A stretch of DNA of 62,274 nt, the filler included, from Basidiobolus ranarum (taxonomy: Eukaryota): assembly GCA_040143965.1 (NCBI GenBank). It is 7 parts of 7 records of this genome, joined end to end, with 100 filler letters (N's around TTAATTAATTAA, not from the genome) between each part and the next. Parts side by side here need not be neighbours in the genome. Positions count along the whole stretch, not along the records: positions 1 to 8,832 come from JASJQH010000914.1; 6 more parts are not named here. One strand, given 5' to 3'. Positions 1 to 60,470 of this stretch are shown one piece after another. The notes under the pieces are model-generated. The model was given only the letters and a program-made list of their open reading frames with translations. It searched no databases and was not told the DNA's origin. Position numbers and translations under genes: made by a program. Numbering within the stretch: the stretch's first letter is position 1; each line of letters begins with the position of its first letter.

Positions 1-570
1 TGGTTATTATTGTTGAAATTAGCATTGCCTAAACACCTATATAGTCATATATAGCTTAGTATTTAGTTATCCTATATTGGGCAAAGATATCACTCACTAA
101 TCTTGATTGGAATTTACTTAGTATAATTTACCAACATAGAAGTTCTCTGATATATAGATTTTTCAAACTTGTGCTAGAAGCCCCAAACTCTGCACACATA
201 TTTCTGGGTCCTTCTTTAGCATATTCTATTTTTAGGTTACTATTTAGTTATTCCATATTTCAATAAGATATCACTCACTAATCTTGATTGGAATTTACTT
301 TGAATATTTTTAGCAACTGTGAAGATCTCAGATATATATATATTTCGAACCTCTGCTAGAAGCCCCAAACTTTACATATATGTTTTTGGTACCTTTCTTA
401 GCATATTCTACATGTTTATTTTTACATCTTGACAAAACTGTAAATGGCAGCTCTCTACTCAATAAATGAGTAAGTTAAATCCACCAATTCTTCTAGTTAT
501 CCAAATCACTTCCAGCAAACTCTCAAAATTTTTTAACAAAAACAGTATGAGATCTAAAATCAAGTATTTT
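1..570 (+). repeat. Dispersed AT-rich repeat family, copy 1 (two tandem ~180-bp subunits plus conserved tail)
   Basis: Subunits at ~63-228 and ~243-413 share gatatcactcactaatcttgattggaatttactt...gctagaagccccaaact. The tail caataaat..aagt..aa.ccaccaatt...ccaaa.cacttcca recurs at 11740, 35690 and (reverse) 17680-17760 and 55170-55250. Confidence 0.9.
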
Positions 571-774
571 GTTGTAATTTGCAGCAAGTTATCCTAGGTG
601 TTAGTGTTTTTGATAGATATAGGTATAGGTGAAAAAAAGATGTGAGTAATTTTATTAAAAGGTGGAAAAGTTTAGGAGGAGGATATCAAAATAGGGATAG
701 TTAAGGTAAGGTTACTTTACTAGGAAGGGTAGGGTTAGTTTCCTAAGAAAGCTCAATAAAAAATCCAAAACCTA

Positions 775-963
775 ACCGAGAGGAAAAGTGCAGTCATACC
801 ATGACTCTAACCCTAACCCACTTTGACCAATCAAACTGCTAAGGTTCTGCACTCTTACCAAGAGGCAAAAGTAGTAGGAAAAGTGTACTCTTACTGGAAT
901 GATCATAACCATAACCCATTTTGACCAATAAAATTGTCAAGATTCTGCACTCTTACCGAGAGA
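775..963. repeat. ~95-bp tandem duplication with telomere-like CCCTAA units; probable terminus of the repeat element
   Basis: Units 781-864 and 876-963 both read aggaaaagtg...taacc(c/a)taaccca.tttgaccaat...ttctgcactcttacc. ctaaccctaaccc at 807-819; gggtagggttag at 727-738. Confidence 0.8.
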
Positions 964-964
964 G

Positions 965-1175
965 CAGCCTGGCAGAAGTGGTAGTATTAGACGACTTTGG
1001 AACCGGGACTTTGCTGCAGTACTTACTTTCCGGCATATCTTAACTTTGCTTAGAGAAAAAGGTTCCTGTCCTGACCGATTTATGCCCCAAGAGCCAGGTA
1101 AAAGAAAAGGAAAGCCAAGAATTGAAAAGAATCAAACTCTCTTCCTCCTCAGTTATCGCTGTAGGACACCTATAG
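965..1175 (+). pseudogene. C-terminal fragment of a Fanzor1 / TnpB-like RuvC nuclease
   Basis: Frame from 971 translates GRSGSIRRLWNRDFAAVLTFRHILTLLREKGSCPDRF (WNRD at 998-1009). This matches the RuvC-III WNRDxxAxxN motif and the RRLWNRDLAAVLNFRHIL..LR..G..P.RF tail I recognise from zygomycete Fanzors. One frameshift gives a basic tail KRKESQELKRIKL...GHL* (TAG 1173-1175). No 5' part is present. Confidence 0.75.
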
Positions 1176-1781
1176 TATTGGTAAGATTTTTAAAAGTATG
1201 TTGATTGTTTAGAAATCATCATGTCCACAAAAAAACCAAGACGTCTAGTTTTAATGTTGACATTCGTTTGAATGGTTTTCTATGATTGTCTAATTTTAAT
1301 TTCAGCTGCTTGTCTAATATTTTTTGCAATCATCTAATTTTAGGTTTGTAATCAATAACCCTATACTCGTGACTTACCTTATTCATTAGCTTTAAAAGCA
1401 GTGACATTCATTTACTTTGCTTTAAAGTTTTGAATTCGAGAAAGGAAACAAATGATCGTTCAACCTCATATTCACTCGCTTAATCCTCTCCTTGTGATCA
1501 TCAACTTATCTCTCAACACTGGCATGACTGATGAAGATTAATTTTAATCACCACAACCCATTCACCATGGATTACACCGAGTATTCTATGCTACAGCATA
1601 TTGATTCGAATTCATATCAACATTAAATATCACCTTTATATATTAACGGTTATTCTGCGTACAAAAGAAAGGATTTATATATGTAGAGAGGTAGACGTAC
1701 ATGTCTATGTAGCAATGAAGTGGCTATCGAATGAGAGGTTGGTTACTCGGCTGCAAGCTGATTAACAGGAAAAGTATATAT

Positions 1782-3424
1782 TCAACTGGTTTCCAACACA
1801 GCCTCTTTTTTCGGAGACTCTGGGATTTCCAATTCAGGAAGTGGTTCAGTTGGGATATTTGGTAGATCATTGATTGCTTGTTGGGCTTTCTCTTCGTTCT
1901 CTAGCTCCATTAAAAAGTCTAGCTCGGACTCAAGCTCACCCATCTCCTCCTCGCCTAAGCCCAGTGGCGCGCCTTGTATACTTTCCAAACCACTTGTCAT
2001 CGCCTGCTCAATCTCTTCCTGATCAGCCATCACATCCTGAAGCTTGTCGATAGTCTCGTCGATAGATTCAACGGTTAGTCCGGTGGAGGACATAACTGAC
2101 TTCAATGTGTTGGCACCCACGTCATAGGCTTTGTATATCTAGAATGGAATTTAGGGTAGTAATCTTAAATGAGAAGAATAGAAATCAACATGGGACATAC
2201 CTCAGCGTCACTTTCAGCCGTTTGGATTTTCAACAGAATGCTATCCATGGTTTCAAATGAGGCGCTACGTTTCTCCAGCACTTGGTTCAACTGTTTACGT
2301 TGACGTAAACAAGACAAAGCGCTAGTTTTCTGGTCTCTAGAGAGGTATTCTTTAGCCTTTTCGGTAAGTGAATGGATACGGGATTGAATGTCGGAGATTT
2401 GCTTTTCGATAGCTGTGCGAGTTTCTTTAATTTGAACGATTCCAAGATCGGAATCTGTAATTTGAATTGGAGTATTTGAATGAACGAATTTGATTACCTA
2501 TAAAAACGATAATAAATATGAATGAGATAGTTTATCGTAAGAAACCGATGGGAATAGAAGATACCATATCTTGAAGTTGTGGTGATGATTTGGAATTACT
2601 TTTATATCCAATCTTTAAACTTTTTCGATTCTTTTCCAAATAATGTACCAAAACGTTTAGATCTTCTTCTGATAATGTGACATTGTCGAAGAGTTGTTTT
2701 TCGAACTTCTCTTTAAATTCATGAAAGGTCAATAGACTATCGGTGATTGCAAAGGTGGAACTTTCCGCTTGTAAACGACAGGCCTTATCCCCTGCTTCCT
2801 AATACATATGAAGTAGAGTTAATACACAACAGGTCATTAGCGTGAAAAGTACCGTGAGTACCTTTAATAGACTCATGATGACGTATTTTCCTGTCACTTT
2901 GCTATTCTTCGAGTCGTCAGCCAAACTAAGCTGCTGGAATCCCCAAAGCAAAGGCGAAGTGCGCAAAGTATCCACCAACCAAGGGCCCCAACCACGGTTT
3001 TCCTTAGTGAAGATTTTAATGGGAGTCAAGTCACCAGAATCGATCATCTCCAACTTGAATGGTATAAAGAAAGAGAAGATTTCTTTAATAAAACGAGAAA
3101 TAAAATCAAAGCAAGTTTTCTATTTACCACAACTTCACCAATACCCATAGGAGTATCCCCCTCCTTTTTAAACACCTCTTCCAAACCCTCCACATTCAAA
3201 CAAAGTACTTCATAGTCTGTATCTCTATCTCTACTTGGTATCAAACCACGTTTGGAACTCTCTAGGAGGACTTTTTTCCAAAAGTTTACGTTCGCTTCAT
3301 AACCTACACGGTTGAGTTCTTTCGACATAGAGAAATCGGAAAATAAAGAGGAGATTCTGGAAGTGGAGTTCCATTCTGGTAAACTATTCAAATAAGCTTT
3401 TAAATCTCGTTCCTCACTGACCAT
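1782..3424 (-). CDS. CHMP7: CHMP7/Cmp7 ESCRT-II/III hybrid protein (winged-helix N-terminus + Snf7 domain), 5 exons
   Basis: Exons 3424-3128, 3053-2862, 2798-2565, 2497-2201, 2138-1782 joined by GT-AG introns in frame. N-terminal RISSLFSDFS..NRVGYEANVNFWK motif; Snf7-type coiled coil ...ALSCLRQRKQL...ILLKIQTAESDAEIYKAYDVGANTLK. Confidence 0.92.
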
Positions 3425-17899: not shown

Positions 17900-19700
17900 T
17901 TGTGCCGCATAAATTTTAGAATACTTTATCCAATATGATATATAGAGCACAATCTGGCACTATCACAGAGAACAAGTCCACTGTGAAGGATTTAAGGCCT
18001 ACAGACGGTTTGATATAAAAAATCAACAGTTAATTAAGTCAGAGATGTAATTTTTGATGAAAAGCAAATTTTTCATCTCAAATCACAGTTCTTGCTCCAG
18101 AAAACACAATTGGTACTATTTGGGAAGAGTCTGTCAAAAATCCAGTAAGCAGTATCTGAGCACTGTTCTATCAAAATTCCAGTCTAAATTACAGCAGAGG
18201 ATGATTCAGGACACAGAAGATTATCCAGATGGAGAAATAAGCCAGGGAACTGGTGTAACACTTCCAATGATGATGAATATCCTTATGCAGCATTCTGTGA
18301 ACAGCCACAGACTCTAGACCAAGCTCTCAAAGTCCAGAATCAAAATTATAGGAGAAAGTAAAGTTTGATGAGTTTACTTCACTCCAGGACAAATCAACAT
18401 GGGTTTTAAGCTCCATTGAATCAATCCTGGCACACTGAGCTGTGCATGACCTTGATTGACATCAAATAGATGTAAAACAGCCTTTCTTATTTGAAATCTA
18501 GGAGAGGAGATCTATGCGGAGCAACCAGATGGATTTGTTGACCAAAAACACCCTGATATGGTCTGTAAACTGCAGAAATTGCTATATGGACTCAAGCAGG
18601 CACCCAGGGCATGTTACAGCTAAATAAATACCTATATGGAATCACCAGAATTTTAAAAATGGATAGCAAACCACAGTAATTACATTAAAACAGTTGGAAG
18701 TAGGATCCTTGTCTTGGCCCTATATGTGGATGACTTGAACATCGACATAAAGGATTTAGAAACCCTTGACCAGACAACAAGTAGCTTATCAAGCCAATTT
18801 CAGATGATTTTTATGGGTGAATTAAGTAATTTTCTAGCAATCCAAATCAAGAGAAATAAGCCCAATCAGAAAATCATGCTGAGTCAATCCAGATACATCC
18901 TAGACATCCTGAAGTGTGTCAACACGGAGAAAAGCAAGCCTTTATCTACACCAATGGATCCCAATGTGAATTAATCAATATTTAATCCAATTTGTCCCAA
19001 AATGACTCAAATCAAAGCCAGAGGTTCCATTATCAATCCATGGTGGGTAGCTTAGTGAATACAATGGTTGCAACATGTCCAGACATTGCTGTTGCAGTTG
19101 GAACTAGCAGCCATTATCTCAAAATTCAGGATCTGAGCACAAAAATGCAGTAGAACAAATATTCAGGCATTTGAGAGGAGCTGTAGATCTAATTCTGGAA
19201 TACTCTGCCACTCCTGATGCACAGAATTTTGAAGGCTACAGTGATGCTGACTGGGGAAGAAACTTTGATGATAGGAGATTAACTGGGTAAACTTCCCTCT
19301 ATAGAATTGGTGCCATAACTTGGAATAGCAAGATGCAACCAACCATAGCACTGTCCACTCTAGGAGCGGAGTATATGGCTGCCTATGCTACTACACAAGA
19401 AGCCATGTTTATAAGGAAGTTATTTACAGACTTAGGATACATGCAGAAAGGTGCTATTACTGTATTTGAAGATAATCAAAGTTTTATTTCCTTAGCTATA
19501 AGCCCTACATTTCATGATGGAACAAAACATATAGATATTAGGCAGCATTTTGTTAGAGAAGCAATAGAGAATGATTTAATCAAATTTGTCTATTGCCAAA
19601 CTGAAGAAACAATTGTTGACATCTTAACCAAACCTTTAGCTAAAGCACAATTTGAATTATTAAGTTATAAGACATATTCAATTCAATAGCACTTTAGTGA
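17900..19700 (+). mobile_element. Decayed Ty1/copia LTR-retrotransposon pol (integrase tail, RT, RNase H)
   Basis: Motifs [100 protein letters not shown]; many stops and frameshifts. Confidence 0.95.
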
Positions 19701-20544
19701 CTAATTCACAAATCCAGATCTTTAAAAAAACTTCCAAATTGCCTGAACACTTTATCACTCACTACTATTAAAACAACACCAGATTACATATAGAGATCAA
19801 AGCTCAAAAGTAATACTATGGTTCAAGAATGCTTCAAAATTGAATTTAAATGCAGCATACTCACACTACATGAGTACTGCACATAATTTAAGGACAAAAG
19901 ACTAGTTGACACTAGGACCAATGGTAAATTATGTGCAGCAATTTGCCTTGTGATGAAAAACAAACATTGTTATCTAAACCACACTTCTCAGTCCAGACCA
20001 TACAATCTGAACAAATCAAAAGGTGTCTAAAAAGATTCATAATATATTGGAGCTTACTCTATTGCAAGAACTAGACCCAATAACCTATCAGGATGATTCA
20101 AGACTTAAGGCTGTGTCTAGAAGGTAAAATAATAAGGAACTGGTGGAAAAATGATACTCTTGTACTCCATGAGTGATTTTTATAACACTTTTTCTTTAGA
20201 AGCCAAGTTCAGCTGCAGTGGATTAATGTGCCATTCTGGGATTTCCCTAACTATGATTTAATTCTAATGATTGCTTGTGCAATCTTGCAAAATGGAAGTC
20301 TTGAACAACAGATACATATGAGGCAAGTAGATCAATTTGTTTGCCCAGAACTCCATGAAATGGTTGAGAAACTGTTATACAGCTAAATGGATTCAAATAA
20401 AAAATAGGGCATAGTGCAACACAAAAGATAACTTTTTGGAAATAACGGAATTTGCAAGATCCATAACACAAAAAAGTATTTACATCAAAACATTCAAAAA
20501 TAGAGTCCCTACCTTGTAAGTGTATGAAGCTGCCTTCATTATAG

Positions 20545-21100
20545 CCAAAAATGACTCAAATCAGAGCCAGAAGTTGCCTTATCAATCCATGGTTACTACT
20601 TTAATGTAGACAATAGTTCGAGCACATCCAGACTTTGCTGAGGCAGTGGGAACTGTTGGCCAATATTTCAAAAAGCCAGGGTCTAAGCACTAGACTACAG
20701 TAATATGAGTATTTGGATATTTGAGAGGAACTGTAGATCTAGTTCTGGAATACTCTGGGACTCACAATGCACCATATTTAGAGGGCTGTGATGCTATTGA
20801 CTGCAGAAAAAACCTTGATGATAAGAGATCAACAATAGGTACACTTTTCTCCATGGTTATGAGTTTGTAAATTGGAATATTAAGAAGCTACAACTGTAGC
20901 ATTACTTACTACTTAGGCTTAGTATATGGCTGCCTCAGCAACTACACAAGAAGCTATGTGGTCAAGAAAGTCATTTTCAAACTGAGGATACATGCTAAAA
21001 TGTGCAATTACTTTATTGAATACTAATCAAAGTTGTATTTCATTAGCTGACAGCCCTGCACTTCATGCTAGAAGAAAATGTATAGATACTAGGCATCATT
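20545..21100 (+). mobile_element. Second decayed copia fragment (RT end + RNase H)
   Basis: Begins aaaatgactcaaatcagagccag as at 19000; encodes HPDFAEAVG, YLRGTVDL, YMAASATTQEAMW, HARRKCIDTRHHF. Confidence 0.9.
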
Positions 21101-22850
21101 TCTCTCATAGGGCAAAAGAAATATTCAATTATATCATTCTCAATTGCTTCTCTGACAAAATGATGCCTATTATCTATATGTTTTGTTCTAGTATGAAATA
21201 TAGGGTTTTTAGCTAATGTAATATAACCTTGATTATCTTCAACTACAGCAATAGCTTGTTTTAGCCTATATCCTAAGTCTGTGAACAACTTCCTTAACCA
21301 CATAACTTCTTGTGTAGTGGCAGAGGCTGCCACAAACTTGGCTCTTGAAATAGAAAGTGCTCTAGCTAGTTGCTTCTCACTATGTAAAGTTATGGCTCTA
21401 ATACCATAGAGGAAAGTGTACACAGTTGTTATTCTGCTATTATCAAGGTTTGTTCCTAAGTCTGCATCACTATGGCCTTCAAAATTCTGTGCATCAGGAG
21501 TGCCTGAGTATTTCAGAACAAGATCCGAAGTCCCTCCCAAATACGCAAATATTGATTTTACTGCAGTCAAGTGCTCAGATCTGTATTTTTGAGATATTGG
21601 CTGACAGTTCCCACTACCACAGCAATACCTGGATGTGTTCCAACCATTTTATACATTAAACTACCCAACTTGGATTGATAAGGAAACTCCTTGCTTTGAT
21701 ATAGGTCATTTTAGTGCAATCAGGCAAATCTTGATCAACTTCACATTGAAATTTGATGGTTTCCATACAGCCTTTTTATTCCCCATGTTGAAGCATTGTA
21801 GGGTGTCAAGGATGTATCTAGACCATTTTGGCATAGCTTTCTCAAAGGGTTTTCCTTGATTGAACTGGATTTGAAGGATATAATTTAATTCACCAACTTC
21901 AGTATTCTGACATAGGTTTTATTAGCTGCTTTTCATTAAGATTAAATGCCTTCAGATCATTTGTGGCTATGAGCCAGTCATTCACATATGGTGCCAAGAT
22001 AAGGAACCTTTTTCCGGTATTTTAATGTAAGTAAATATCTTCTTAAAGATTTCCCTTTGGAAAGGCTGTTTGTACATCCTTTGTATGTAAATCAAGGTTT
22101 CGGATGATTGAGTGTGACAGGATTGCTCTAATCGAGCTCAACATAGCTACGGGAAGAAAGGTTCCTTGAAAATCAACTCCTGGAATCTTGGAATAACCTT
22201 TGCAACAAATCTTGCTTTGTACCTTTGTGTCATTCCATCAACATGGTTATTTCCTTTATAGAGCTAGTTGCAGCTTATTTGCTCCCTCCCTGTTGGTAGA
22301 GAACTTCAAACCCATGTTTCATTGTTGTAAAGTCAAGGAAAGTCATCAAACATTGCTTTTTCCCATAATTTTCAGTCTGGACACTGATGAACTTGATCCA
22401 AATTCAGTGGTTCATTACAAAGTGCTGCATAAGCATAGAAATCATCATTGGAAGTATTCTACTAGTTCCCTGGCTTATTTGTCTTATGGGATGATCTTCA
22501 AGGCTGTAAGTCACCCTCTGGTATAATTAGGGCTGGAATATTGGTTGAATTGGGTTCAGAGAGTGTTGGATCTTTGTCAGTCACTTACTGGAAAATGGCG
22601 ATTGTGTTTTCTGGATCAAAAAATGGGATTTGAGGCATATGATTTTCATTTCCTCAAAAATCACAATTCTGCACTTGATTAACCTCTGCTTTTTGGTATC
22701 AAACAGTTGGTAGGTCTTAGATCAATCACAGTAACCAAAAAATATACATTTACTGTTTTTGGGTACCAAATAAGAACATTGTTGAGCTGTAACTAGGCAA
22801 CAAGCTGTGCAACTAAAGTTCCAGATATGATTCACAATGTGTTTTGATTC
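21100..22850 (-). mobile_element. Third decayed copia pol fragment, inverted relative to the second
   Basis: ORF 21043-21570 has EGHSDADLG, AASATTQEVMWLRKL, EDNQG, FHTRTKHIDNRHHFVRE. RT remnants lie at 21600-22400 and an integrase C-terminal remnant (IWNFSC...IVIFEE) at 22650-22830. Confidence 0.92.
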
Positions 22851-22899
22851 ATACTGGGCCTCCAATGGAGTTGAATTCAGGAACAATATTGTTGGGCAG

Positions 22900-24730
22900 C
22901 TGTTTTAGATATAGACTGCAGTGGGGACACATTCAGCCTAACATTGGTAATCTGACTTTTGATCATATGTATGCCTTGAGATTAAACTCCATGAATTTAA
23001 GAAAATCAACAGCAGGATTGTGTATTGTGCCCTCGAAAACCTCCAGGTTTACTGATGGCAGGAGTGCAACCAACACAAACATTGATATTAGCTTTAAAAA
23101 ATATTCACTCATTGGAACCTAATTAGATAACCATTGAAACTCTGCAATCATAGGCTCTAAGAAGCTATCTATTAGTACTGGGATTTAGGTCCAGATATGA
23201 TGAATAGTATCAAAATTTTATGACTCTTGAACTGTTCAGAAGAAGGAAGATTTAAGTTGATTAAAATAATGGCCAGCAAGCCTTTCCAATGGTATTTTGG
23301 TTTTGTGAGAAACCATCCATAGCCAATGCAAATGCATGCTCATATGTGTTCTCAAAGAAACCTTGACTTTTCAGATCCTGGTGATGATATCCATCAAGTA
23401 TAGTGATAATACCAGTAGCTTTTCTGTGACCACTTTGGTATCGGTTTAATGATCTATATTTGGGTGCTTTCATCCAGACTTTAAGATGGGCAATCAATGG
23501 TATGTAAGCCAAACAATAACATTGTTTATCTGATTCAGTGATTGCCAATGTTGTGCAAACAGTACATGACTTCAGATTTTTCAGAGCACAGGTGAAAGCC
23601 ACAAACCATATGAATATGAAGGTGGTCTGATCACAGAAGGATTATTAGTCATACAATTGTTGGGTGTTCTCTTCTTGTACCAGGTCTGCAACAAGCAACA
23701 GTTGCCATGCAACTAGAGTAAAAGTGTAAGAAAACCAATTAATGCCTGGTTTGTAAGATTGGAGTGAAATATCCAAACATCAGTGATCAAGGCTGCTTCC
23801 TTTATTGTAAGTGTTATGGGTGGACTAATGCTTGCTGATAACAAAGAGTCCATAACCAAACCAGTGTCTTCTTCCTTATCTTCTGATACATTATCATCAG
23901 TACTGGAATGAACAAGGTCAAAATCCGGCAACATTTCCTCAAAATTGTCTGTACTTATTGGTTCACCCAAAGTTGCATTTCTACCTACATCAATCTGGTC
24001 TTATAACTGAGGTAACTCCATGGTATCTTAACTTTTAGCAATGTTACCAAAACTTTGAGGCAAAGCACAGCCCGTGGACTCACTAGGCAAAACTAAAGTA
24101 GATGGTTTGCACTTACTACTGTTGATATTTACCAGGCTTTGTGCAACTGGTGGCTTTGTACAGTGTTCATGCCTGTGATTGTTTTATAATGGTTGGTAAA
24201 TGGTCAATCCAATATGGATTAAAACTGTGATGGTTTTCCTGCATTAACCATCCTCTACTTTATATTAGGGCTGACTTTAGGTTTTTCAGATCACCAGTGA
24301 ATGCCAAACAACCATTTGGACATGAAGGTAGTTTACTTACTGCAGGATTATAAGTCATATGATTAATAGTGTTTTCCACCTGCACCAGGTCCATGGAAAG
24401 CAACAGTTGCCAATCAACTTTGGTAAAAGTGCAAGAAAACAAATAAACACCTGGTTGCTAATATTTGATTGAACTCTTCACTCCTCATATTCAACACTGC
24501 TTCTTTTGCAGTAAGTGATAGAAGTGGACCAATGCTTGCCAATAACAAAGAGTCTGTAATAAATCCGTCATCTTCTGTATTTTCGGATATACTACCATCA
24601 ATACTGGAATAACCAAGTTCCACATCCAGCATCATGTCCTCAAAGTTGTCTTAACTTACAAGTTTAACCAAAGTAGCATTTCCACCTGAATCATTGTAGT
24701 CATATAACTGTGGTAACTCCATGGTGCCAT
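22900..24730 (-). mobile_element. Decayed CACTA/EnSpm-type (tnp2, Transposase_21) transposase with an internal tandem duplication
   Basis: CPNGCLAFTGDLKNLKS, C..C, YIPLIAHL, ILDG.HHQDL...GFF, ALAMDGF, CWPL, NLNLP..E, ISGPK are the fungal tnp2 signature. The 5' part is duplicated (~23565-24030 vs ~24270-24730). Confidence 0.85.
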
Positions 24731-24799
24731 AAGAGAAATTGGAGAACTGTTATTGTAGGAAAGTCTTCGCAATTTTAGTACATTTGGGATCAACACTGA

Positions 24800-26683
24800 A
24801 TGTCATAAAACTGTCAAGTAAGATTTGATGTTAATCAATTTTTCCAGTTGTAGGATTGAAATATCAAGATCTCACAAAATAGTTGCACACAATTGTCTAC
24901 AACCTCAGAAAACAAATGGTTCAACACATGTCCAAAAAATGTATCTCAAATTTTACAGATTTACCACTTGAATGCCAATTTGTCACCTTCAAAATCCCTA
25001 GTTTCTTTGATATTTTCTCCTGAATATTTCTATAGAGTTCTTCATAGCAAAGGTTTAGCTCATATCCAACATAAGTTTGTATAAACATCTCCATCAAAGC
25101 CCACAATCATATTAATGTTGCTGAATCGATATTTTTCAAGCTCTCTGTCAGGTACCCTACAATATTTTGCCACTGTGTATTACATTCTTTCCAAATATCT
25201 GCATGGTCAACACCAGACTGAATGCCAAGTTCACTATTCTTCTTCTGAAGCCACTTTCTGCATACTTGCAATGTGTTCTTGCCTTCATACTTTTGAAAAT
25301 ACTCCTCAAGTACTTTGACTATTTTCATACATCCCTGTAGTATGATGCTACTGAGGGTGTGTGCAGTGTTTGTGTGGCTTTTTGCTTGCCTTTAACTTTG
25401 GGGCTACTTGCAATACTTTGAAAAGTATCAGTTTTGGTTGGAGAGCCATGAGCTTTATTTGCTGGTGTTTTGGCTTGTTGAGAGGTGCTAGGTGTTGGAT
25501 AAACTTCCAAATTGAGCACTCTTCTAGCTGTTGTACCTGGTTCCATGGTGATATTGAGCTTTTTTGCTTGTATACATGACTCTGAAATACAGATCTGTGT
25601 AATGGTGTGAACAATTTACCAAGTGGGAAAGTAGAGCCTAAACTGACTGGCTTGTTTGCTTTTCCTTTGGGCTTATTAACTTACTAATTCTTCAGTACTT
25701 CTTTAGCTGCTTTTTTTGTTTTTCTAAGTCAATAATTGTGTATCTTTTTAGATGAGTAACTGAGAGGCCAGTATTAGCCCAATTGCCAATTGCTTGCAAA
25801 AATCCAGGATAAGCCACATGGAATAAGTAAAGAACCTTCAGAGTAATGCCTGGTTTTCAGCTTTTCTACAATTGGCTTAAATCAAGGTAATTTTGGGCAA
25901 GATTTCACACAGTTTCCAGATTGTTAAACAACTCATCATCTGGGCAAGTGATGTTAGTTCTGACATTCAGAGTCTTTTAATTTGCCAGTTTCACTATGAG
26001 TTTTCTACTTTCATGTGCCCAAGAAATATCAGGTCATTGTGTGGGATTAATGGATCTGGACATATTCTGCTCTGCTAGATTGTAACAGTGGCATTCATAT
26101 GTATGGGCTGGGATTGCTTGAAATCCCATATGGGAATGCACAGAGAGAGCAGCATGTTGCTGTAGCTTAAGTGCAGCATTCTGAAGGACTTGTATCATTG
26201 TTGAGTGACTCTCTAATGGCTGACTAGTTGCTTCAGACTGCTGCATTAATTGCAATATTGTGGTGTTATTGCTTGTCATGGCCTGTATGGCAACATTGTA
26301 GTTTTTACTTATGATTGAACACAAGCAATTATGATGTTCTGCTTGCAATTCCATTGTTGAAGTAATTCTATCCAAATTTTCTATGGAGGGTGGCTCAAAA
26401 GTCGGCAAAGTAGCCATTTTGCAAGTTGAAGATCTTGATGGTTTCTTGGTTGAACTTTGCTCAACTATTGAATTACTATCCAATTGGGGTACTCTAATCA
26501 CTTTACATGCACTATTGCTGTAAAGGAACACATCTGGAAAATAGATTAATGCATCATCATTACTCAAGTTAGTTTCTAACATGTTAATGCCTTACAACAT
26601 GAATAGTGAAGCACTAGACTGCTCATTAATAAGGTCCTCTGGTCTTGCTGGTTTTTTCCTGTTTTGGAAGCAGGATTTAGGTT
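24800..26683 (-). mobile_element. Unidentified decayed ORF, probably TE-borne (possible accessory ORF of the CACTA element)
   Basis: Chain of same-strand ORF fragments (26034-26582, 25325-25546, 25107-25328, 24921-25106) with Q/S/T/K-rich low complexity and near-total CpG loss, like the adjacent TEs. No family motif recognised. Confidence 0.45.
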
Positions 26684-26783
26684 NNNNNNNNNNNNNNNNN
26701 NNNNNNNNNNNNNNNNNNNNNNNNNNNTTAATTAATTAANNNNNNNNNNNNNNNNNNNNNNNNNNNNNNNNNNNNNNNNNNNN
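26684..26783. other. Artificial contig-joining spacer
   Basis: N44-TTAATTAATTAA-N44. Confidence 0.99.
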
Positions 26784-29034
26784 AGATATTCCTATTTAGA
26801 ATATAGGGGCTATAGATATGTTGCTTTCTGTTTCTGATATATGTATCATAACTAAAGTTAACTATGATGTTGAATAAAGATTAATTATCCAACAACTAGG
26901 TAAGCAAGGCACTAGGCCAACTCTTTGCATGCAACATGTGCGATTTTTTTAATCCAGCAAGCCCTACAAATGGTGCTTGTTTTGTGGTATTTGCCTTGTT
27001 GTGCTTAGGAAACTTCAATAGAATCTACTGACATAGTGTAGGAGCTTCAACATTCTATATCAGAAGAAGTAGGTGTTTAACCAATGGGAAGTTACCAACA
27101 ATTTGGTGAGAACCCCCTTGGAAAACTACCTGAACTACCAAGTAGCTCCAACTCCCCTATTGCAAATAACTACCTTGTTGATGAGGCCAGTGATTAAGAT
27201 TCTTATGCTATATAAATATGATAGTGCTTATGGTAACTGATTCTGAAGGTGAGCATTATGCCTGCATAAAGATGAACACAAGCACTTTTCCTCATATATG
27301 AAGATCTGTATCTACCTTTGTTTCATTAGTACTATTACTTTGGAGGCTTTATATCTCTTTATAGGTATATGTGTTTACACTCGTTGTTTTACTGAATTGA
27401 ATGTAAATATTTGTACCTACGTAGGAAATGAACAAGTATAGAAACAGAGTTGTGTAGCTAGAGCACCGGTTCAGAAGTGGCAGTCACCAATTCACAAAGC
27501 AATACTGGTATCAGCAGCAGATTGCTTACTGTGCAATTTAAATTGATATTCCGGGGACAGTAGGTTCAAAATCTTGGATTGCAATAGCGTAATATTTTAA
27601 CTTCTTAAACAAAATATCCCAAATGTTGGTAAAGCGGCTGTTAGTCTACTGATTGGCAATATTAGTTCGAGCATCAGATACCGTCGCAGCGTTCATAGAC
27701 ACATTACGGGAAATTTCACCGTAATATTGACCATCTAATGCTCCATTTGGCTGTTGAAACCATTGGTGATATTCAAAAAATTCCATCCATCACCTCCTAC
27801 CGCATTGGCTCATTAACTTCGATATGCTCACATTCATGAGGCCAATGGATTTACTACACGATCCAAGAAAGTTAGAAATACTTGGTAGTCGTGATAAATG
27901 AAACTTTTATTGAAATTCATTGTATATATATGTATTTGGCCAATAATAGGAAAACTGAAGTGTCAGCTGAGTAAATAATGGACATGTATAAAATCCATCT
28001 GTGAACAATTAGATCCGTATAAAACACCCCCTTCTCCTACCATAAATACTTGTTGTGTAAAGCTGTGAAAGTCTCATCTACAAAGCACAACTCTGACATC
28101 CGTTGATAGTTAGGCTGTTGAGAGTAGTTCCATTAAACCAAGTATTTGAAGAGGTCAACGAGCAGCGTACATCAATGATCATCATCAAGTACACTACTTG
28201 AATTGGTTAAGAGGCAAACATATTATATTAAATAGCATATCCGGTTCTTGCCCGGAGAGATCCGAAACAATTGAAACATTTCGATTGAATCCCAGCTATG
28301 GAAAATTGCATCCAAGCGTATCATGTGTACAGCGAACCATCACTTGTCTCTCGATTGAATTAGAACACACAACTCAAAAGGAAGTAAAAATATGTGATTA
28401 TTGTGTGGGCCCCAGCGACGTTTTAGGTATACGTGAACTCTTTATCCATGATTAGACCCACTCACGAACTCCAACTTAGGTAAGTGAAAAGCCATCCAAA
28501 ACTGCCACGATGGTACAACTCTCCTTTCCCCTACAATCTTACCACTAGCTATGACAGTAAGGGAGGGATTATAGCTATTAGAGATGTAGCACTGTATACC
28601 TTGATACACATGGAAATTCGTGTATGAGAAACAAGACAGGTTTAGAAGTGTCCTTGGCCTCAAGTAGTAAATGTAGAATTTATGAACATTTCATATACAT
28701 GAAATGATTCTACTATAGCTGACAACTAAGCCTGCGATCTCTGGCTACATTTCAAGTGATAGTTACCAAATACGCGTATCAAGAACATAATGTAAAGAAA
28801 GGAAGTTATCTTTAATCATTATTGATTCCTTTCTGAATGAAGGAATATACATCTTGATAGAAACAATGAACTCCGAGAAGCTTTAGATATGTTTGATAAA
28901 AGACATTGGTGATTTCAAAAGAAAAAAATATTAAATTCAGAGCACATATGAGTCAATCCTTTTTCTGTGGATTGTATAAGAAAAAAGCATCAACTGAATC
29001 CATGAATCCGTGGTTAGACAGATCCTTTCTGTGT

Positions 29035-53486: not shown

Positions 53487-55050
53487 GAAGTAAATTCTCC
53501 ACCATTATCAGTATGCATTTTGTTGATTTTAGTTCCAGTTTCAGTCTCCACAAGTGTTTTAAAATCTCTAAAGATGGAGAGAGCTTCTTCTTTTTTTTCC
53601 ATAAAGTAGACCCAAGTGTATCTTGTGCAATCATCAATAAATGTCATTAAATATCTCTTTCCACCTAAAGATAAATTTTGCATAGGCCCACACAAATCTG
53701 AATGAATTCAATCCAATTTTTTGACAGATTTGATTAATCCAGAGCTCTTGAATGGTTGCCTGGCTTGTTTTCCATATTTACAACCCACATAATTTCCATT
53801 TTGGATGAAGGGTTAATTTGAATTCCAGAAATTTTGCAATTTTTGATCTTTTTGCTCAAATAATCAAATCCAATATGGCCAAATCTCTTATGCCATAATT
53901 AAATAGTGTCTGGATTCAAATAACTTATCTTAACACATAAACCTCTTGGATTATATATAAGTTTTTATAAGTTCTGATCCTTTTCTCTCAAAGCTAAATA
54001 ATTCCCATTTTGATCAGTGATGGTGCATCCTGACTTTTCAAAATTGATTTTTAGCCCTTCTGAGGTGGCCTTGCATACAGATATTAAATTCTTGGCAATA
54101 TCTGGAGCATGTAGTACATCCTTAAAAGTATATACCTTCTCTTCAGAATCTCAAGTTAAATTGACTTGAATTTTCCCCTACCAATAGCATCCAAGGTGCA
54201 GTCATCTCCCATGAAAACCTTTCTAATTGAGATCCCTTCATATTTCACAAACCAATGGTTTTCATTTGTGAGATGTTGGGAAGGTCCAGAATTGATGTAC
54301 TATGTCTGAGAATCCTTGTTGATACTCATAGATAGAGCAGATATGAACAAGTGCTCTTCTGTTGTAACTGCATTTCCAGATTCAGTATGTTTTCTTCTTT
54401 TTCAATCTTCTAGAGCAATCTTGACTCAAAAGGCCAGTTCTTTTCCAGTAATCACAGAATGTGTTACTTTTCTTCTTTAGGTGCTTTTGACCTTTATAGG
54501 AAGGTTTCCCATAGCCTATTGAAGCACTTTATTCATTCTTTTGATTGGATCCAGATTTGCATAGATCTACATCCAGGAGTCTGCCAAATACATAATTTAT
54601 GGTCAAATTCACAGTTCTTGATTCTCAAGCCATTACTAGGCTCTGAAACTTGTGTGGTAGGCTGTTCAGGACTGTAACTATGATATCTTGATCAGTGTTA
54701 GGTACTCCAATGCATTCCATTTTGTGCACTAAAATAGTGACTCTATTAATTGGTGATTTAATGTCTTCTCCTGGCTTCATCTATAAGTTAAAGAATTGTC
54801 TTCTTGGAACATCTTGTTGGCAGCAGAACTTGTTTGGTAGATGTCTTCCCAGGCTTTTCATACCTTCTTGTCAGTTTTAGCTCTTGAACATTGAATTAGC
54901 AATTTGTCTTTAACATTAAGACAAGCTGTGTTAAAGGCACTTTGTTCTTTTTTAACCTGCAGTAAAGCTTTGGTTTCAGATAGTTTTGCATTGGTTTCTT
55001 CTACTACAACAGTGTCAAAAGAGTCCTTTTTCTTGTAGCAGCATTTTCAT
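53487..55050 (-). mobile_element. Decayed Ty1/copia gag-protease-integrase region
   Basis: Integrase IHSDLCGPM...RYLMTFIDDCTRYTWVYF...TDNGGEF; gag-pre-integrase LWHKRFGH; protease-like SGPSQHLT and DVLHAPDIAKNLISV; degenerate zinc knuckle near 54420-54460. Confidence 0.93.
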
Positions 55051-55159
55051 TTTGATTTTTCAAACTTGATAAATGGCTCCATCCAATTTTTCACAAGAGG
55101 GAAAATTTCCATAAATTTGAGAAGTAGGCATGACAGAGAGTGCAAGCTTGGGGTTTATA

Positions 55160-55522
55160 ACCTTTTAAAGTATTTGGGAGCCTGTTGGAAGTGGTTTGAA
55201 GATTTAGAGAAATTGGTGGTTTTACTTATTGATTTATTGAGTAGAAAGTTGACATTTAGAGTTTGATCAAGACATAAGCAAACTATTGTATAGAATGTGT
55301 TAAGAAAGGTTCCAGGAACATGTGTGCAAAGTTTGGGGCTTCAAGCACAGGTTTGAAAATCTATATATCTGAGAACTTCTAAGTTGGTAAAAATATTCCT
55401 ATTAAATCCCAATTCAAAAATGGATAATATCTTAGTGAAATATAAGATCATTAAGTAATAAGCAATATATTACTACATAGATGTTTAGCAATGCTAATTT
55501 AAATCATTCTAACCCTAACCCT
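55160..55522 (-). repeat. Dispersed repeat family, reverse copy ending in CTAACCCTAACCCT
   Basis: Reverse complement of tail + subunit + aaattagcattgc.aaaca; telomere-like 14-mer at 55509-55522. Confidence 0.88.
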
Positions 55523-56519
55523 GTTTACATCCCATCATTAAGACTGAACAGCTGGTATTGTTGTGAAAAGTCTGCATAAAGCTTGTTAAACCATTTGGTT
55601 TACATGTATTTCAATAAATACTGCTCTGTGATGTAACATGTTATATTTTAATAGATCAATTATCTTGCCTACAACTATGCCATACACTTGGACACTGGCA
55701 CTCAAAGAGCACCATGACCATCTTCTTAGCACGCCATATTGCAGGGATAATATAATGACCATTTATGATCCTCAAAAATTTCTTAGTCTGGAGCTGTTCT
55801 TAACTAGTGACTGCTTGGATAGCTCTAACACACTGGGATTAACACCTCCCTCAACTTGGCAATAATATTGGATATGAAATGAAGAGATTCAACAGCAGGG
55901 ATATGCTTATAGTGTATACAAAGTTGAGGGTTAAAGCTTGGGCCACTTTGGACAAGCTTTAAAAGTATCCAAGTTAAATATATCCAAGTTGTCAAAATTT
56001 CTGACATTTATCAAATATATTAAATATATATATATGTGACAATTTTGATTCATGAATTTTTAAACAGGTAATTATCAACTATGTTAAACAAGATACAGGA
56101 GTAATTAGGTGCTTAATTCAAATATCAACACTTACTAGACCTATATTTCAGCATTTGTAGTTTCTACATACTGACCCTAAGCTAAGTGTGACATGCAGAG
56201 AACACTGAGTCCAGCCATTTGGAAAACTATAGCTTGTTCAAAGCATAGCAAAGCACAGATACTCAAAAAAAGTATATTGGTCCATACTTCCATTATGGAT
56301 ACCCTGTATTAAATATATTTAATATCCAATACAATAATGTTCATTATTATTGAGGCCATGGTTTTAAATCACTTTCTTTGCGTATACTTGAACCTACGCT
56401 ATAGTAGATATTTTGTTGTACTCCAAGAATCTCCATCTACATTTATATGAGCCAACGACTTACCATTAACTTTTCTCCCATGTAAAATGAATTTAAACTT
56501 TTTCAAAATCTTGCCTGCC

Positions 56520-57000
56520 CCAATAGAGCTTTAACCATCCACTTCAATGACTGTTACTTTCTTGATTGTATCTCCTCAATAAATTTACATTTAGCAGATG
56601 TAACAATTCTCTTTCTGCGTTGCATATGTCAGCGTATCTGAGATGTCTCGGCACTAACTGATATTTTAATATATCCTGCTGAATACTATAAACATTTAGA
56701 GAGTATACTGCTTGTACAATCCAACGCCGTAAATAAAATAGCGGGATTCTACTCATATATAAAATATGATTATTCTCTCAGCTTATTGTATTACCTGATC
56801 TTGGATTCAGACTTTGTCTCAACATCAAAGAATGTAGTAATTTTAAGAATTCCACATGAGACATTCCTTTGAGCAATATATTCTAGCCTCTGGAAGATGC
56901 ACAGGCGGAACTTGCAAGGATAGCAAATTTCTAGTTGAAAACAATACGTGCCAATCAACATGCCTTTCATAAAGAGAGAAATATTCAAAGCCCGCATTCC
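56520..57000 (-). pseudogene. Possible decayed PCL (Pho85-type) cyclin
   Basis: Fragment YADICNAERELLHLLNVNL resembles the cyclin-box helix D-I-N-x-x-E-R-x-x-L-x-L-L-x-x-x-L. Upstream fragments RNVSCGILKITTFF and ILFTALDCTSSILSKCL fall in the expected order but in different frames. Confidence 0.3.
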
Positions 57001-58115
57001 ATATTTACTCTGCTCCAGCCTTTAACACTCTTGATAGTGTTTTCTATCACTTACAATTAAATGAATAATCTTCCTGATTTTTTCCTATTACTCAAACTAG
57101 ATTCAATTTGACCAAATTTTTTACGCATTTATGGTTACCGAGTACACCACAGTGGCGCCATTGTTCATCCCTATTGCTTTTCACTTTTGCTCCACTTATT
57201 TTCTCTGCTCCTAAGTATATTAAGGTCGAGCCAAATTCTAACTGGAACAGCATCTAGATTGGCTTGATTGTTGTACCACTTAGATCACTTGAATTAGGAC
57301 CAATCGAGTATTTGGCGTTTTCCCACCGATGAATTTAGCACACAAGAACATTAGAATTTTCTGCTTGGTGATCATAAGGAGGCAAATTTTCAGCCATAAA
57401 ATTGCTGCGAAATCTCAAAAGTAAAATCGAAGGAAAAAAATATCAGCAAGTTGCAATTAGACTATTTTCAAAGATTGATTAGTCCCGGCTGTCAAAATGT
57501 GATAATTTGGAGCACTGGGAATCCATATATATTATGGTTATCGATCAATTCCATTTTAGATTTGGTCATACACTGGTCTAAATGGGAAATCTAGATTCAG
57601 CCATACACACGACATAGTGTTATTATACAGCAAAATTTTCTTGTGCCATGTGATTGAGTACACAGTCTCTGTAACCGCCCACAAATGACCAGGAATGAGA
57701 ATTCAATGGGATTCGGCTGCTATGTCCAACAGCATCTCATTAATATGTATTACAGAACTCCTATTTAGCGAGAACTCTGTGTATCCTTGCTAGAGCAGGG
57801 AAGTAACAGCCTCATCATTACCATATCACTTGGATCAAGAATAGTGTGTCCCTTACAATCCGTTTTGAAACAATGCAACTAGCCGAACCCATATATGACA
57901 ATCGGCAGCTTAGTACTTGAGAATGGAACACTGGACAAATTCCAAATCCATTATAGGCAACGGATTGGCCTTATGTTTGGTGAGATGATATATTCAGAGA
58001 GTCCCCAAATAGGCTTATTTAAGGTTAGGTAAGGTAACAAGTATAAGTTTCGCAAGAAACATTTTCCCGCCTTCACTATAAATTTTGGGATACTTCATTT
58101 TCAGAAGCCATTACA

Positions 58116-60470
58116 ATGAGTATACTATTTCTTTTTTATGGTCGAATCTCAAATCTTGGAAAGGCCTTCATCTCTGCCACCTTCACTTTATGTATCCTAT
58201 GCAAACTAGCATTGACTTTTGATTACATCAGTCGGGTGCCAAGTGGAGCTCTCTGGTTCCCCTCCACCCTTTTTTTCGACTGGGTATACCTTCAAGTAAT
58301 AGTTATTTTGATGGATTTGAGTGGTAGAATGCAGAAGTTACGGTGGGTGGGGTGGGTTTTCATAGGCATGTTGTACCTCCTCACTATTTGGAGCACCTTG
58401 GCAAACGTTATGACCATCACATTCTATGTCGAGTCGGAAACCTTGTTAAACTGGTACACTATGCGCGACCTTATAGCTAATGTTACTGTCGCTCAAGCCG
58501 GGATGGCTGTACACGATCTCCCTTTGCTTGCCCTCATGCTTTCAGGATTTCTTGTCCTCTGGCTATTTTTCTATTTCTCCTTGCGCTATCAACTGTCCAG
58601 GGCGTCATCGAATCAGACCTACATGCCCGTACACACCAGGCTCGAGGAGATTGCTGCGATAGAGGAAGCATTCTTAGAAGAAACGGTGTATATAGAGCCA
58701 AAGACCTCTCCACCCACAGGCAAGTTCTCCTGGTCCAGAGAATCCCTATGCATGCTTGCAACCAAGAGAAATGCGGCATACGGATTAGGGGTTGCTTTCC
58801 TCATAACGTACATGATTTTGTGTTTGACCATCAGACCATCAGACCCTTGGTCTACATTTGATAGCAACTTTGGTGCCAAAGCATTATGCATTATGCTGAT
58901 TTATCCTAATGCTCCATTTTCTGATTATCTGCATGTTACAGGTTTCAAATATGATGCATCTAACGATTTTATGACGAAATTCTCGAAAATTCATGTTGGA
59001 CGAAAATCAACAATGGAAGAGCAAAACTTTGACTTCCTCCGAAGAAGCCAGAACTCTACTATCAAAAACGTTGTATTCCTGATCCTTGAAACGACTCGCA
59101 ATGATATTATTCCATTCGACTACTTCTCCGAATTTTCGGAGCGGCTAGAAGTAAAATTCAAAGAGGAGCAGCGTAATCAAACCCGTAACGCAACCAGTGC
59201 CGAAGGATACCAGAACGGTATTTCGCCATTCTTCGAGGATTTGATGCGACGAGGAGGTTTCTACATGCCATACACAAAATCACTTTCGGGATATACCTTG
59301 AAATCTCTCACCACTACCCATTGTGGTATGATGCCCCTTCGTACCCCAACTGCCACCGAGACCACGCATCCATTCTATCAAACATGCTTGCCAGAGCTTC
59401 TCAGTAATCACAACTACAGCTCAGCGTATTTCCAAACTTCCGACGGAAACTTCGATAGCCAAAGAACTCTGATGAACAAATTCGGATTCGACTTAGTGCT
59501 AGACAAACAGTTGATTGATAGTGGTGTACTTGACCAATACAAAGATATCCCTAGACTCGCGGACGGAAAGTTTGAGGAAATCAATTACTTTGGATATGAG
59601 GATGAGATTATTATTCCCAAGATGGTGGACTGGATTGGAGAGCAGAAAGACGCTAACAAGCCCTTTTTCCTCACTCAACTGAACAATGTTGCGCACCATC
59701 CGTATGGTCAACCCAAGAGGTGGAACAAGACCAATTATCTGCAGGATGCCGATAGCTCGGTGAATGACCATCTGAACAGCATCCGTTATGTTGACGACTT
59801 CCTGAAGGATTTCATGACTGGCTTCGAAAGTGCTCATCCACAAACCTATAATGAGACTCTATTTATGTTTATTGGCGATCACGGAGTTTCTCTACGCGAG
59901 CATCACATCATGCACGCTCATCAACACCCTTACGAATTTGCTTTCAACGTGCCACTTATGTTTTACTCGCCGAATGATGGCATACAGGACTTTCTGAAGC
60001 AGCAATTCCGAAAGAACCTGATTGAGAAGAACGGGCCAGAAGCACAGCAAGATGGCCGCTTGCAAACGCTTTATCAACGCGGTGCCACCAACCTAGTCCT
60101 TGGCAATTGGACCAATCTCGACATTCTACCGACGATGCTCAACCTTTTCAAGGAAACTGCAGATGCGGAGCAAGGCAATTTCGATTACGAAGGATCTAGC
60201 ATCACCGGGCCTAATGACCCCAAGCGAGTCACTATGTCTATTGCCTCTCCTGGCGGCTTTTCTACGACGCTTCGCTATGGCAACCATAAGCTACTGAAGT
60301 TCAACGATGGCACCATGGTATATTACGATCTCTTCTCTGACCCCACTGAGCTTCATCCCATACAAATTGAAGACCTGGGTCCAGAGTTGCACGAATGGGC
60401 GGTTGCCGCTGATAGCGTTTCTGAGATCTGGAATACGAATATTAACGAGGCATACCATGATGACCAATAA
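58116..60470 (+). CDS. LtaS / sulfatase-like (alkaline phosphatase superfamily) membrane enzyme, intronless, 784 aa
   Basis: About five N-terminal hydrophobic segments, then NVVFLILETTR (metal Glu), GYTLKSL (Thr nucleophile position), GFD, PFFL..LNNVAHHPY, HLNSIRYVDDFL, FIGDHG, VPL, DILPT. Confidence 0.88.
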   Translation: MSILFLFYGRISNLGKAFISATFTLCILCKLALTFDYISRVPSGALWFPSTLFFDWVYLQVIVILMDLSGRMQKLRWVGWVFIGMLYLLTIWSTLANVMTITFYVESETLLNWYTMRDLIANVTVAQAGMAVHDLPLLALMLSGFLVLWLFFYFSLRYQLSRASSNQTYMPVHTRLEEIAAIEEAFLEETVYIEPKTSPPTGKFSWSRESLCMLATKRNAAYGLGVAFLITYMILCLTIRPSDPWSTFDSNFGAKALCIMLIYPNAPFSDYLHVTGFKYDASNDFMTKFSKIHVGRKSTMEEQNFDFLRRSQNSTIKNVVFLILETTRNDIIPFDYFSEFSERLEVKFKEEQRNQTRNATSAEGYQNGISPFFEDLMRRGGFYMPYTKSLSGYTLKSLTTTHCGMMPLRTPTATETTHPFYQTCLPELLSNHNYSSAYFQTSDGNFDSQRTLMNKFGFDLVLDKQLIDSGVLDQYKDIPRLADGKFEEINYFGYEDEIIIPKMVDWIGEQKDANKPFFLTQLNNVAHHPYGQPKRWNKTNYLQDADSSVNDHLNSIRYVDDFLKDFMTGFESAHPQTYNETLFMFIGDHGVSLREHHIMHAHQHPYEFAFNVPLMFYSPNDGIQDFLKQQFRKNLIEKNGPEAQQDGRLQTLYQRGATNLVLGNWTNLDILPTMLNLFKETADAEQGNFDYEGSSITGPNDPKRVTMSIASPGGFSTTLRYGNHKLLKFNDGTMVYYDLFSDPTELHPIQIEDLGPELHEWAVAADSVSEIWNTNINEAYHDDQ

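Follow-up and report, generated by a model that had tools for sequence, protein, structure and literature searches.

The plus strand of the window (the whole stretch of DNA analysed here, 62,274 nucleotides) contains, just downstream of a tandem repeat, a short open frame, which had been interpreted in a sequence-only reading as the 3' remnant of a gene for Fanzor, a eukaryotic TnpB-like RNA-guided nuclease, followed by a region possibly encoding its omega-RNA. The locus raises the questions whether the frame is indeed derived from a Fanzor gene, how much of the gene and of the RNA is left, and whether what is left could still have a function.

Identity of the encoded peptide

By direct reading, the frame at 932-1204 (+) translates as ...SGSIRRLWNRDFAAVLTFRHILTLLREKGSCPDRFMPQEPGKRKGK... 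(90 aa; in a longer excerpt, NCQDSALLPREQPGRSGSIRRLWNRDFAAVLTFRHILTLLREKGSCPDRFMPQEPGKRKGKPRIEKNQ...). This 90-aa frame was the query of an exhaustive phmmer search of 1.84 billion representative proteins, which returned 16 proteins at E<=1e-3, two of them at E<=1e-10, the best match having E=5.9e-13. Identity over the remnant was 44-79% across these relatives. The two top matches are Basidiobolus ranarum 'hypothetical proteins', and both are fragments: P0001 is a 191-aa deleted form (79% identity), P0002 is a 64-aa partial sequence (69% identity). The remaining named matches were from Coemansia species and from Dispira parvispora. All alignments were located at the C-terminal end of the matching protein, for example at residues 603-651 of the 672 of P0005, or at residues 736-790 of P0013, which is 807 aa long.

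The full-length relative P0013 could be aligned in four segments with the Fanzor1 of Parasitella parasitica (PDB 9cf0, E=1.3e-79), and it also matched the Spizellomyces Fanzor1, SpuFz1 (PDB 8gkh, E=1.2e-33). The remnant peptide itself aligned with residues 1217-1258 of the 1259 residues of 9cf0, i.e. with its last 42 residues (E=5.9e-5; the next PDB match had E=2.2). The sequence-only reading had proposed a search of the peptide against Fanzor proteins; this search gave the 9cf0 match and the family profile match described below, and the Fanzor identity held up: the relatives are Fanzor1 proteins, and the peptide falls on the extreme C-terminus of a solved one. Judged by these sequence comparisons, a Fanzor1 gene is represented at 977-1164 (+) by its C-terminal end.

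Pfam assigned no family to the 90-aa peptide, and among the relatives it gave sub-threshold matches to PF07282 (Cas12f1-like TNB) only, in three of the eight proteins scanned. Most full-length relatives carry PF26935 as a precomputed Pfam label; a separate Pfam scan of P0013 yielded no family. None of the 48 candidates raised in a word-based search for longer proteins scored at E<=1, and neither viral contigs nor the genome contigs of prokaryotes, when scanned, gave a confirmed relative. In an alignment of 14 proteins (A1) the invariant columns include D488 (in a DPGRRD stretch), E673, C680, C683, C715, C720, N747, D749 and N755; D488, E673 and D749 presumably form the RuvC triad.

It must be noted that in some Coemansia protein models (P0047, P0067, P0091, P0084, P0096, P0103) C-terminal parts of Fanzor1 are fused to unrelated host domains, labelled e.g. 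as 2-oxoacid dehydrogenase or PP2A subunit. These fusions are probably due to annotation read-through across transposon insertions.

Extent of the gene and its upstream border

The following features define the border of the remnant:

781-962, no strand assigned: tandem repeat of ~98 bp, two copies, with telomere-like CTAACCCTAACCC (repeat search, self-blastn)
977-1114, plus strand: Fanzor1 C-terminal coding remnant, frame A (tblastn, phmmer, family profile, 9cf0)

A family profile of 674 positions, built from the 14-protein alignment, was searched against the six frames of the 62-kb window. It matched nucleotides 983-1123 (E=4.6e-12), solely through positions 615-661, in agreement with the missing 5' part claimed earlier. 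The next matches had E=1.8 and 6, and the six frames contained no other Fanzor match. The results of tblastn with 16 homologues agreed with the profile, the closest relatives aligning from 977. About the last 9% of the gene, the last ~60 codons from the RuvC-III motif to the stop, is present. The RuvC-I Asp, the RuvC-II Glu and the CxxC...CxxxxC zinc-finger (TNB) domain of Fanzor1 were absent in the six-frame profile search of the 62 kb, thus the locus represents a remnant, not a functional member, of the Fanzor1 family.

Self-blastn and tblastn detected no second Fanzor copy in the window. Two tblastn matches at 59421-59552 (E=0.3 and 0.98), within the 807-aa ORF of a sulfatase, were discarded as chance. 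A weak match of the peptide at 23768-23655 (E=0.048) was likewise set aside; it belongs to a degenerate repeat ORF in which no Fanzor motif is present. The sulfatase/alkaline-phosphatase-like ORF (58047-60470, plus strand, 807 aa uninterrupted, precomputed label PF00884) shares 80% and 68% identity with two Basidiobolus meristosporus proteins, which, together with the B. ranarum origin of the nearest Fanzor fragments, marks the host as a Basidiobolus-type fungus.

The two copies of the ~98-bp repeat are at 801-864 and 899-962, and match each other over 87 bp at 79% in self-blastn. The Fanzor homology begins at 977 if judged from the closest relatives, or at 983 according to the family profile, 15-20 nt past the repeat end at 962, which bears out the abrupt start described in the sequence-only reading. 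A second tandem-repeat family, with a period of ~181 bp, is found farther upstream (47-410).

The remnant was also said to have kept its CpGs, and this proved right: 965-1260 contains 6 CpGs, with a CpG observed/expected ratio of 0.53. The ratio is lower in 1-964 (0.12) and in the repeat blocks of the 18-27 kb region (0.07-0.11), and higher in two genes (0.84-0.90). More generally, CpG observed/expected was 0.07-0.15 (GpC ~1.1-1.3) in the repeat/retroelement blocks 18001-27000 and 54001-57000, and 0.7-0.9 in the flanking genes. The CpG-depleted blocks look like the products of repeat-targeted cytosine methylation and deamination, or of a RIP-like process. A run of N at ~26690-26735, inside a repeat block, is an assembly gap (X in the ORF list).

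The missing 5' part could be explained in another way, namely that the repeat DNA of 1-962 was inserted into a once complete Fanzor1 gene, whose 5' part would then be located upstream of the window. The homology does stop within 15-20 nt of the tandem-repeat end, the CpG ratios on the two sides differ (0.12 versus 0.53), and the 976 bp upstream of the remnant are all that is visible; moreover, retrotransposon insertions into Fanzor loci were reported in Spizellomyces punctatus (PMC10432273). However, tblastn and the profile found no Fanzor piece in 1-976 or elsewhere in the window, and even if such an insertion had taken place, the frameshift and the two substitutions described below would leave the gene broken. 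We regard the insertion as unlikely, and treat the remnant as a 5'-truncated gene end.

On the other side of the remnant there is a gene of the Snf7 family (ESCRT-III) at 1782-2497 on the minus strand, with at least two exons (PF03357, 29.4 and 43.1 bits), whose 3' end faces the Fanzor remnant. Between the two lies a 24-nt inverted repeat (1250-1273 / 1604-1627), its arms 79% complementary and 330 nt apart, which may be a small transposon or may have arisen by chance.

Damage in the coding sequence

In the coding remnant 977-1114 the WNRD motif of RuvC-III, the FRHILTLLRE helix and the (R)PDRF motif can be recognized, as can the beginning of the basic tail. Within and behind the remnant the following positions are of interest:

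1007-1009, plus strand: codon of the presumed RuvC-III catalytic aspartate (WNRD), retained; D749 of P0013, invariant in the 14-protein alignment
1010-1027, plus strand: two substitutions at near-invariant positions (86 motif-bearing relatives compared)
1115-1128, plus strand: zone of a net 1-nt frameshift, A-rich basic tail (three-frame reading against P0002)
1129-1164, plus strand: last 11 ancestral codons, ESNSLPPQLSL, and stop TAG (1162-1164), frame C; 10 of 11 residues as in the P0002 C-terminus

The WNRD motif is encoded at 998-1009, and its D, which we assume to be the RuvC-III catalytic aspartate, is retained. The next residue is changed from L to F (1010-1012); L is present in 80 of the 86 relatives carrying the motif, and F in none. 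The N-to-T change at 1025-1027, noticed already in the sequence-only reading, affects a position (N755) that is invariant in the 14-protein alignment; 81 of the 86 relatives have N, none has T.

Frame A of the remnant continues to ...GKRKGK (1114). In tblastn, residues 4-48 of P0002 fall in frame A and residues 54-64 in frame C, and one net frameshift is sufficient to account for this, because the distance from KRK to the stop differs from that in P0002 by a single nucleotide. We considered a path with two frameshifts, through a 'KESQE' match in frame B, and rejected it, a single net 1-nt change being more parsimonious in an A-rich tail. The frameshift postulated earlier is thus real, and the second frame, reading KEKESQELKRIK..., is present in the tail, but the KRIK reading of the tail is not the ancestral one: it is the frame ending in ESNSLPPQLSL and the stop that matches P0002 (10/11).

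No protein can be made from this copy, since at least 90% of the gene is absent from its place, there is a frameshift in the tail, and substitutions affect two near-invariant residues. We infer that the remnant is inactive as a source of nuclease. The earlier conclusion that this copy cannot encode an active protein is therefore upheld, with the truncation, the frameshift and both the L-to-F and the N-to-T changes as its grounds.

The omega-RNA scaffold

The features of the RNA part, all on the plus strand, are as follows:

1137-1192, plus strand: homologue of the Fanzor1 omega-RNA scaffold, zygomycete/PpFz1 type (covariance model R1)
1146-1166, plus strand: conserved hairpin with 5' arm 1146-1152, loop TTATCG 1153-1158 and 3' arm 1159-1166, T1162 bulged (R1, covariation)
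1159-1175, plus strand: stem-loop CTGTAGG-ACA-CCTATAG, specific to this copy (minimum-energy fold)
1180-1185, plus strand: conserved GGTAAG motif near the scaffold 3' end (alignment of loci)
1192-1212, plus strand: putative guide-equivalent flank, just past the right end of the element (analogy with PpFz1)

JGI metagenome contigs were scanned with the protein alignment, which gave seven loci, four of them (L001, L002, L003 and L007) including the 3' end of the gene and the flank. In all four a similar block is found at or just after the stop codon. A covariance model (R1; 55 positions, 7 pairs) was made from these four loci, leaving out the Basidiobolus window, and was then searched against both strands of the whole window and the seven loci (82,267 bases). 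Outside the training sites it matched 1137-1192 (+) over all 55 positions, with 31.3 bits and E=7e-5; the next match had 13.7 bits and E=1.3. The E-values of R1 are rough, as they come from a short calibration. The score of the window scaffold (31 bits) is lower than the scores of the training loci (49-56 bits).

All seven model pairs of the hairpin 1146-1166 are standard pairs in the window. Across five sequences 90.9% of the cells are paired, as against a shuffle mean of 67.4%, the observed value being reached by 0 of 500 shuffles, and five of the seven pairs are changed on both sides, controls slid along the alignment giving 8-63% pairing; these figures come from five sequences only, whose alignment was fitted to the model. 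The GGTAAG motif is shared by the window, L001 and L003, and is replaced by GTGTAAG in L002 and GGAAAG in L007. The window scaffold lacks the ...TATACT-like bases seen in the relatives 3' of GGTAAG. A further stem, between the ATCC box and GGTAAG, was dropped from consideration, its pairing, inspected by eye, being inconsistent across the loci.

The 5' half of the scaffold overlaps with the codons for ESNSLPPQLSL and the stop, and TAG 1162-1164 of the ancestral frame sits inside the hairpin. The C-terminal ends of the relatives are similar to each other (...NNLPAQL in a Coemansia subgroup, ...NNLPAQLSLR in P0030, ...NNLPPQLSL in P0002, ...IPPAQLSL* in L007), whereas the basic tails preceding them vary greatly in length. 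These conserved ...LP(P/A)QL(SL) ends are encoded by the 5' arm and the loop of the hairpin. Conserved protein ends behind tails of variable length fit a constraint acting at the nucleotide (RNA) level at the end of the ORF.

In the P. parasitica enzyme (PpFz1) the first guide base is C50, 6 nt past GGTAAG (PMC11423790, Table S3). If the locus follows this layout, its scaffold would give way to the guide at about 1191/1192, and conservation among the loci fades in 1192-1212. The suggestion that an omega-RNA region had been preserved was correct in that a scaffold is retained, yet it covers only ~55 nt and not the whole of 1085-1260.

The stem-loop at 1159-1175, to which the sequence-only reading had drawn attention, does exist, and it is this structure, and not the conserved hairpin, that the minimum-energy fold of 1140-1191 uses. 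The fold is not unusual (z=-1.55, 12 of 200 shuffles folding as well; z=-0.94 for 1130-1215), and the stem-loop is not conserved in the relatives: in the five-sequence alignment 56.7% of the cells pair, which equals the shuffle mean, with no compensatory pairs. Since both this stem-loop and the conserved hairpin need 1159-1165, the two compete. We therefore rejected 1159-1175 as the conserved structure of the family, the relevant hairpin being 1146-1166.

Rfam detected nothing at gathering score over 1-3000; the sub-threshold matches in this interval were mir-1277 (24 bits, cutoff 81) and sn2841 (19.9 bits, cutoff 45), neither of them in 1130-1200. One of the metagenomic loci contains a second, degenerate Fanzor C-terminal fragment (L003:3719-3865, minus strand; tblastn E=9.7e-5), tail to tail with its full Fanzor1 gene; this fragment lies ~650 nt downstream of the end of the first gene and contains a stop.

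Interpretation of the locus

Taken as a whole, the sequence very probably represents, at 977-1192 (+), the decayed right-hand end of a Fanzor1-carrying transposon with its omega-RNA scaffold, in a Basidiobolus-type genome. Such an end would consist of the last ~60 codons of the nuclease and of a ~55-nt scaffold that overlaps the stop and extends past it, with an ATCC-like box, a 7-bp hairpin with the loop TTATCG, a spacer and GGTAAG as its parts. In the intact element the RNA would have been transcribed through 1137-1192, across the element end and into the flank, and the flank 3' of the scaffold would have become the guide directing Fanzor1 to matching DNA, to be cut beside a TAM. Guide-directed cutting of DNA beside a TAM was shown for PpFz1 (PMC11423790) and for SpuFz1 (PMC10432273), and for the window it is presumed from these cases. 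In its structure the scaffold is intact, yet it is most probably just a relic.

If so, the locus indicates that a Basidiobolus-type genome was formerly host to a PpFz1-like Fanzor1 clade. A more useful result is that the very short scaffold solved for PpFz1, which shares sequence with the final codons of the ORF, is conserved in the metagenomic relatives and in B. ranarum, its stem showing compensatory changes. We propose the combination of ATCC box, TTAYCG-loop hairpin and GGTAAG as a signature for the right ends and guide boundaries of this clade.

A more far-reaching interpretation is that the locus is a working orphan guide, its omega-RNA being still transcribed and taken up in trans by an intact Fanzor1 whose gene lies elsewhere in the genome, with the guide running from 1192 onward; in that case it would correspond to the 'ghost' loci of Spizellomyces, but have arisen by truncation. 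The hairpin with its 7/7 pairs, the loop and GGTAAG are intact, the DNA has not decayed like the repeats (CpG ratio 0.53 versus 0.07-0.12 in the neighbouring repeats), and guide loci without a gene do exist, 134 ghost loci being counted for S. punctatus in PMC10432273. On the other hand, neither the 16 relatives of the peptide nor the 97 of a wider search include an intact Basidiobolus Fanzor1, which is a weak point as an argument because transposon genes are often left unannotated. The last scaffold bases, between GGTAAG and the boundary, differ from those of the relatives, the competing copy-specific hairpin dominates the fold, and there is one copy in the window. We therefore consider a working guide highly improbable. 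If it did exist, a broken transposon end would still be programming an RNA-guided nuclease, and the preserved CpGs would reflect escape from the silencing that struck the neighbouring repeats.

That the similarity arose by chance, or that the frame is a short exon of a host gene unrelated to Fanzor, is so improbable as to be negligible: Pfam and the word-based search were silent on the peptide, but a match of E=5.9e-13 was obtained among 1.84 billion proteins, all full-length matches are Fanzor1 by comparison with solved structures, and an independent RNA model matches the adjoining DNA exactly where the family has its scaffold.

Comparison with known Fanzor and TnpB systems

It is useful to compare the transposon end in the window with the structurally characterized PpFz1 system, whose omega-RNA is 71-75 nt long (PDB 9cf0-9cf3; Xu et al. 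2024, Cell, PMC11423790). At the protein level the C-terminal ...LWNRDxAAVLxFRxIL..LRE....P..F of PpFz1 aligns with the remnant. When 1140-1191 is compared by eye with nucleotides 1-49 of the PpFz1 RNA, as given in Table S3 of PMC11423790, the ATCC box, the hairpin, the spacer and GGTAAG are colinear, and the layout is common to both: a 6-7-bp hairpin, the loop TTATCG, a spacer of ~12-14 nt, GGTAAG and ~6 nt to the guide. By the same visual alignment, 18 of 25 positions in the 5' part are identical if T1162 is taken as an insertion, and in three stem pairs both bases are replaced (one A-U to C-G, two A-U to U-A). The window differs from the PpFz1 RNA in the bulged T1162, a spacer 2 nt longer and the last 6 nt; it differs from the PpFz1 gene in having only the last ~60 codons, with the frameshift and the L-to-F and N-to-T changes.

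The 'hypothetical proteins' of Fanzor1 type in Coemansia, Dispira, Basidiobolus ranarum and Mucorales include subsets sharing the C-terminus NNLP(A/P)QL(SL). Unlike the remnant, many of these relatives are full length (600-1000 aa) and have the invariant D, E, cysteine and D columns. A full-text search, covering the main texts of papers and not the supplementary lists of the large Fanzor surveys, found no paper with both 'Fanzor' and 'Basidiobolus'.

In Spizellomyces punctatus, Saito et al. (2023, Nature, PMC10432273) reported 134 ghost loci, beside 42 loci whose Fanzor genes are full-length (19 loci) or partial. The partial and ghost loci of the Spu-1 type resemble our locus in that a Fanzor1 family leaves behind partial genes, and loci without the nuclease which retain the RNA region of the right end. 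The ghost loci are, however, complete miniature elements with both inverted repeats, present in many copies, whereas the remnant is a 5'-truncated gene end without the left end. No inverted repeats bounding the remnant were found, the only ones detected in 1-2000 being unrelated. With no left end, a single copy in the window and an ORF stub attached, the locus does not count as a ghost element. It also belongs to another Fanzor1 clade than Spu-1, with a scaffold of ~50 nt versus 75 nt there. Partial Fanzor genes and nuclease-less loci having been described already in S. punctatus, the locus itself is an ordinary transposon relic.

According to PMC10432273, the RNA of Fanzor/TnpB systems may overlap the 3' end of the ORF. 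The same source describes this arrangement for the bacterial TnpB of IS200/IS605, in which the gene for the omega/reRNA shares sequence with the 3' end of the nuclease ORF and continues to the right end, the guide being taken from the flank of the element. The transposon end in the window is alike in these respects; it differs from bacterial TnpB in belonging to a eukaryotic Fanzor1 clade with different domain extensions and no TnpA.
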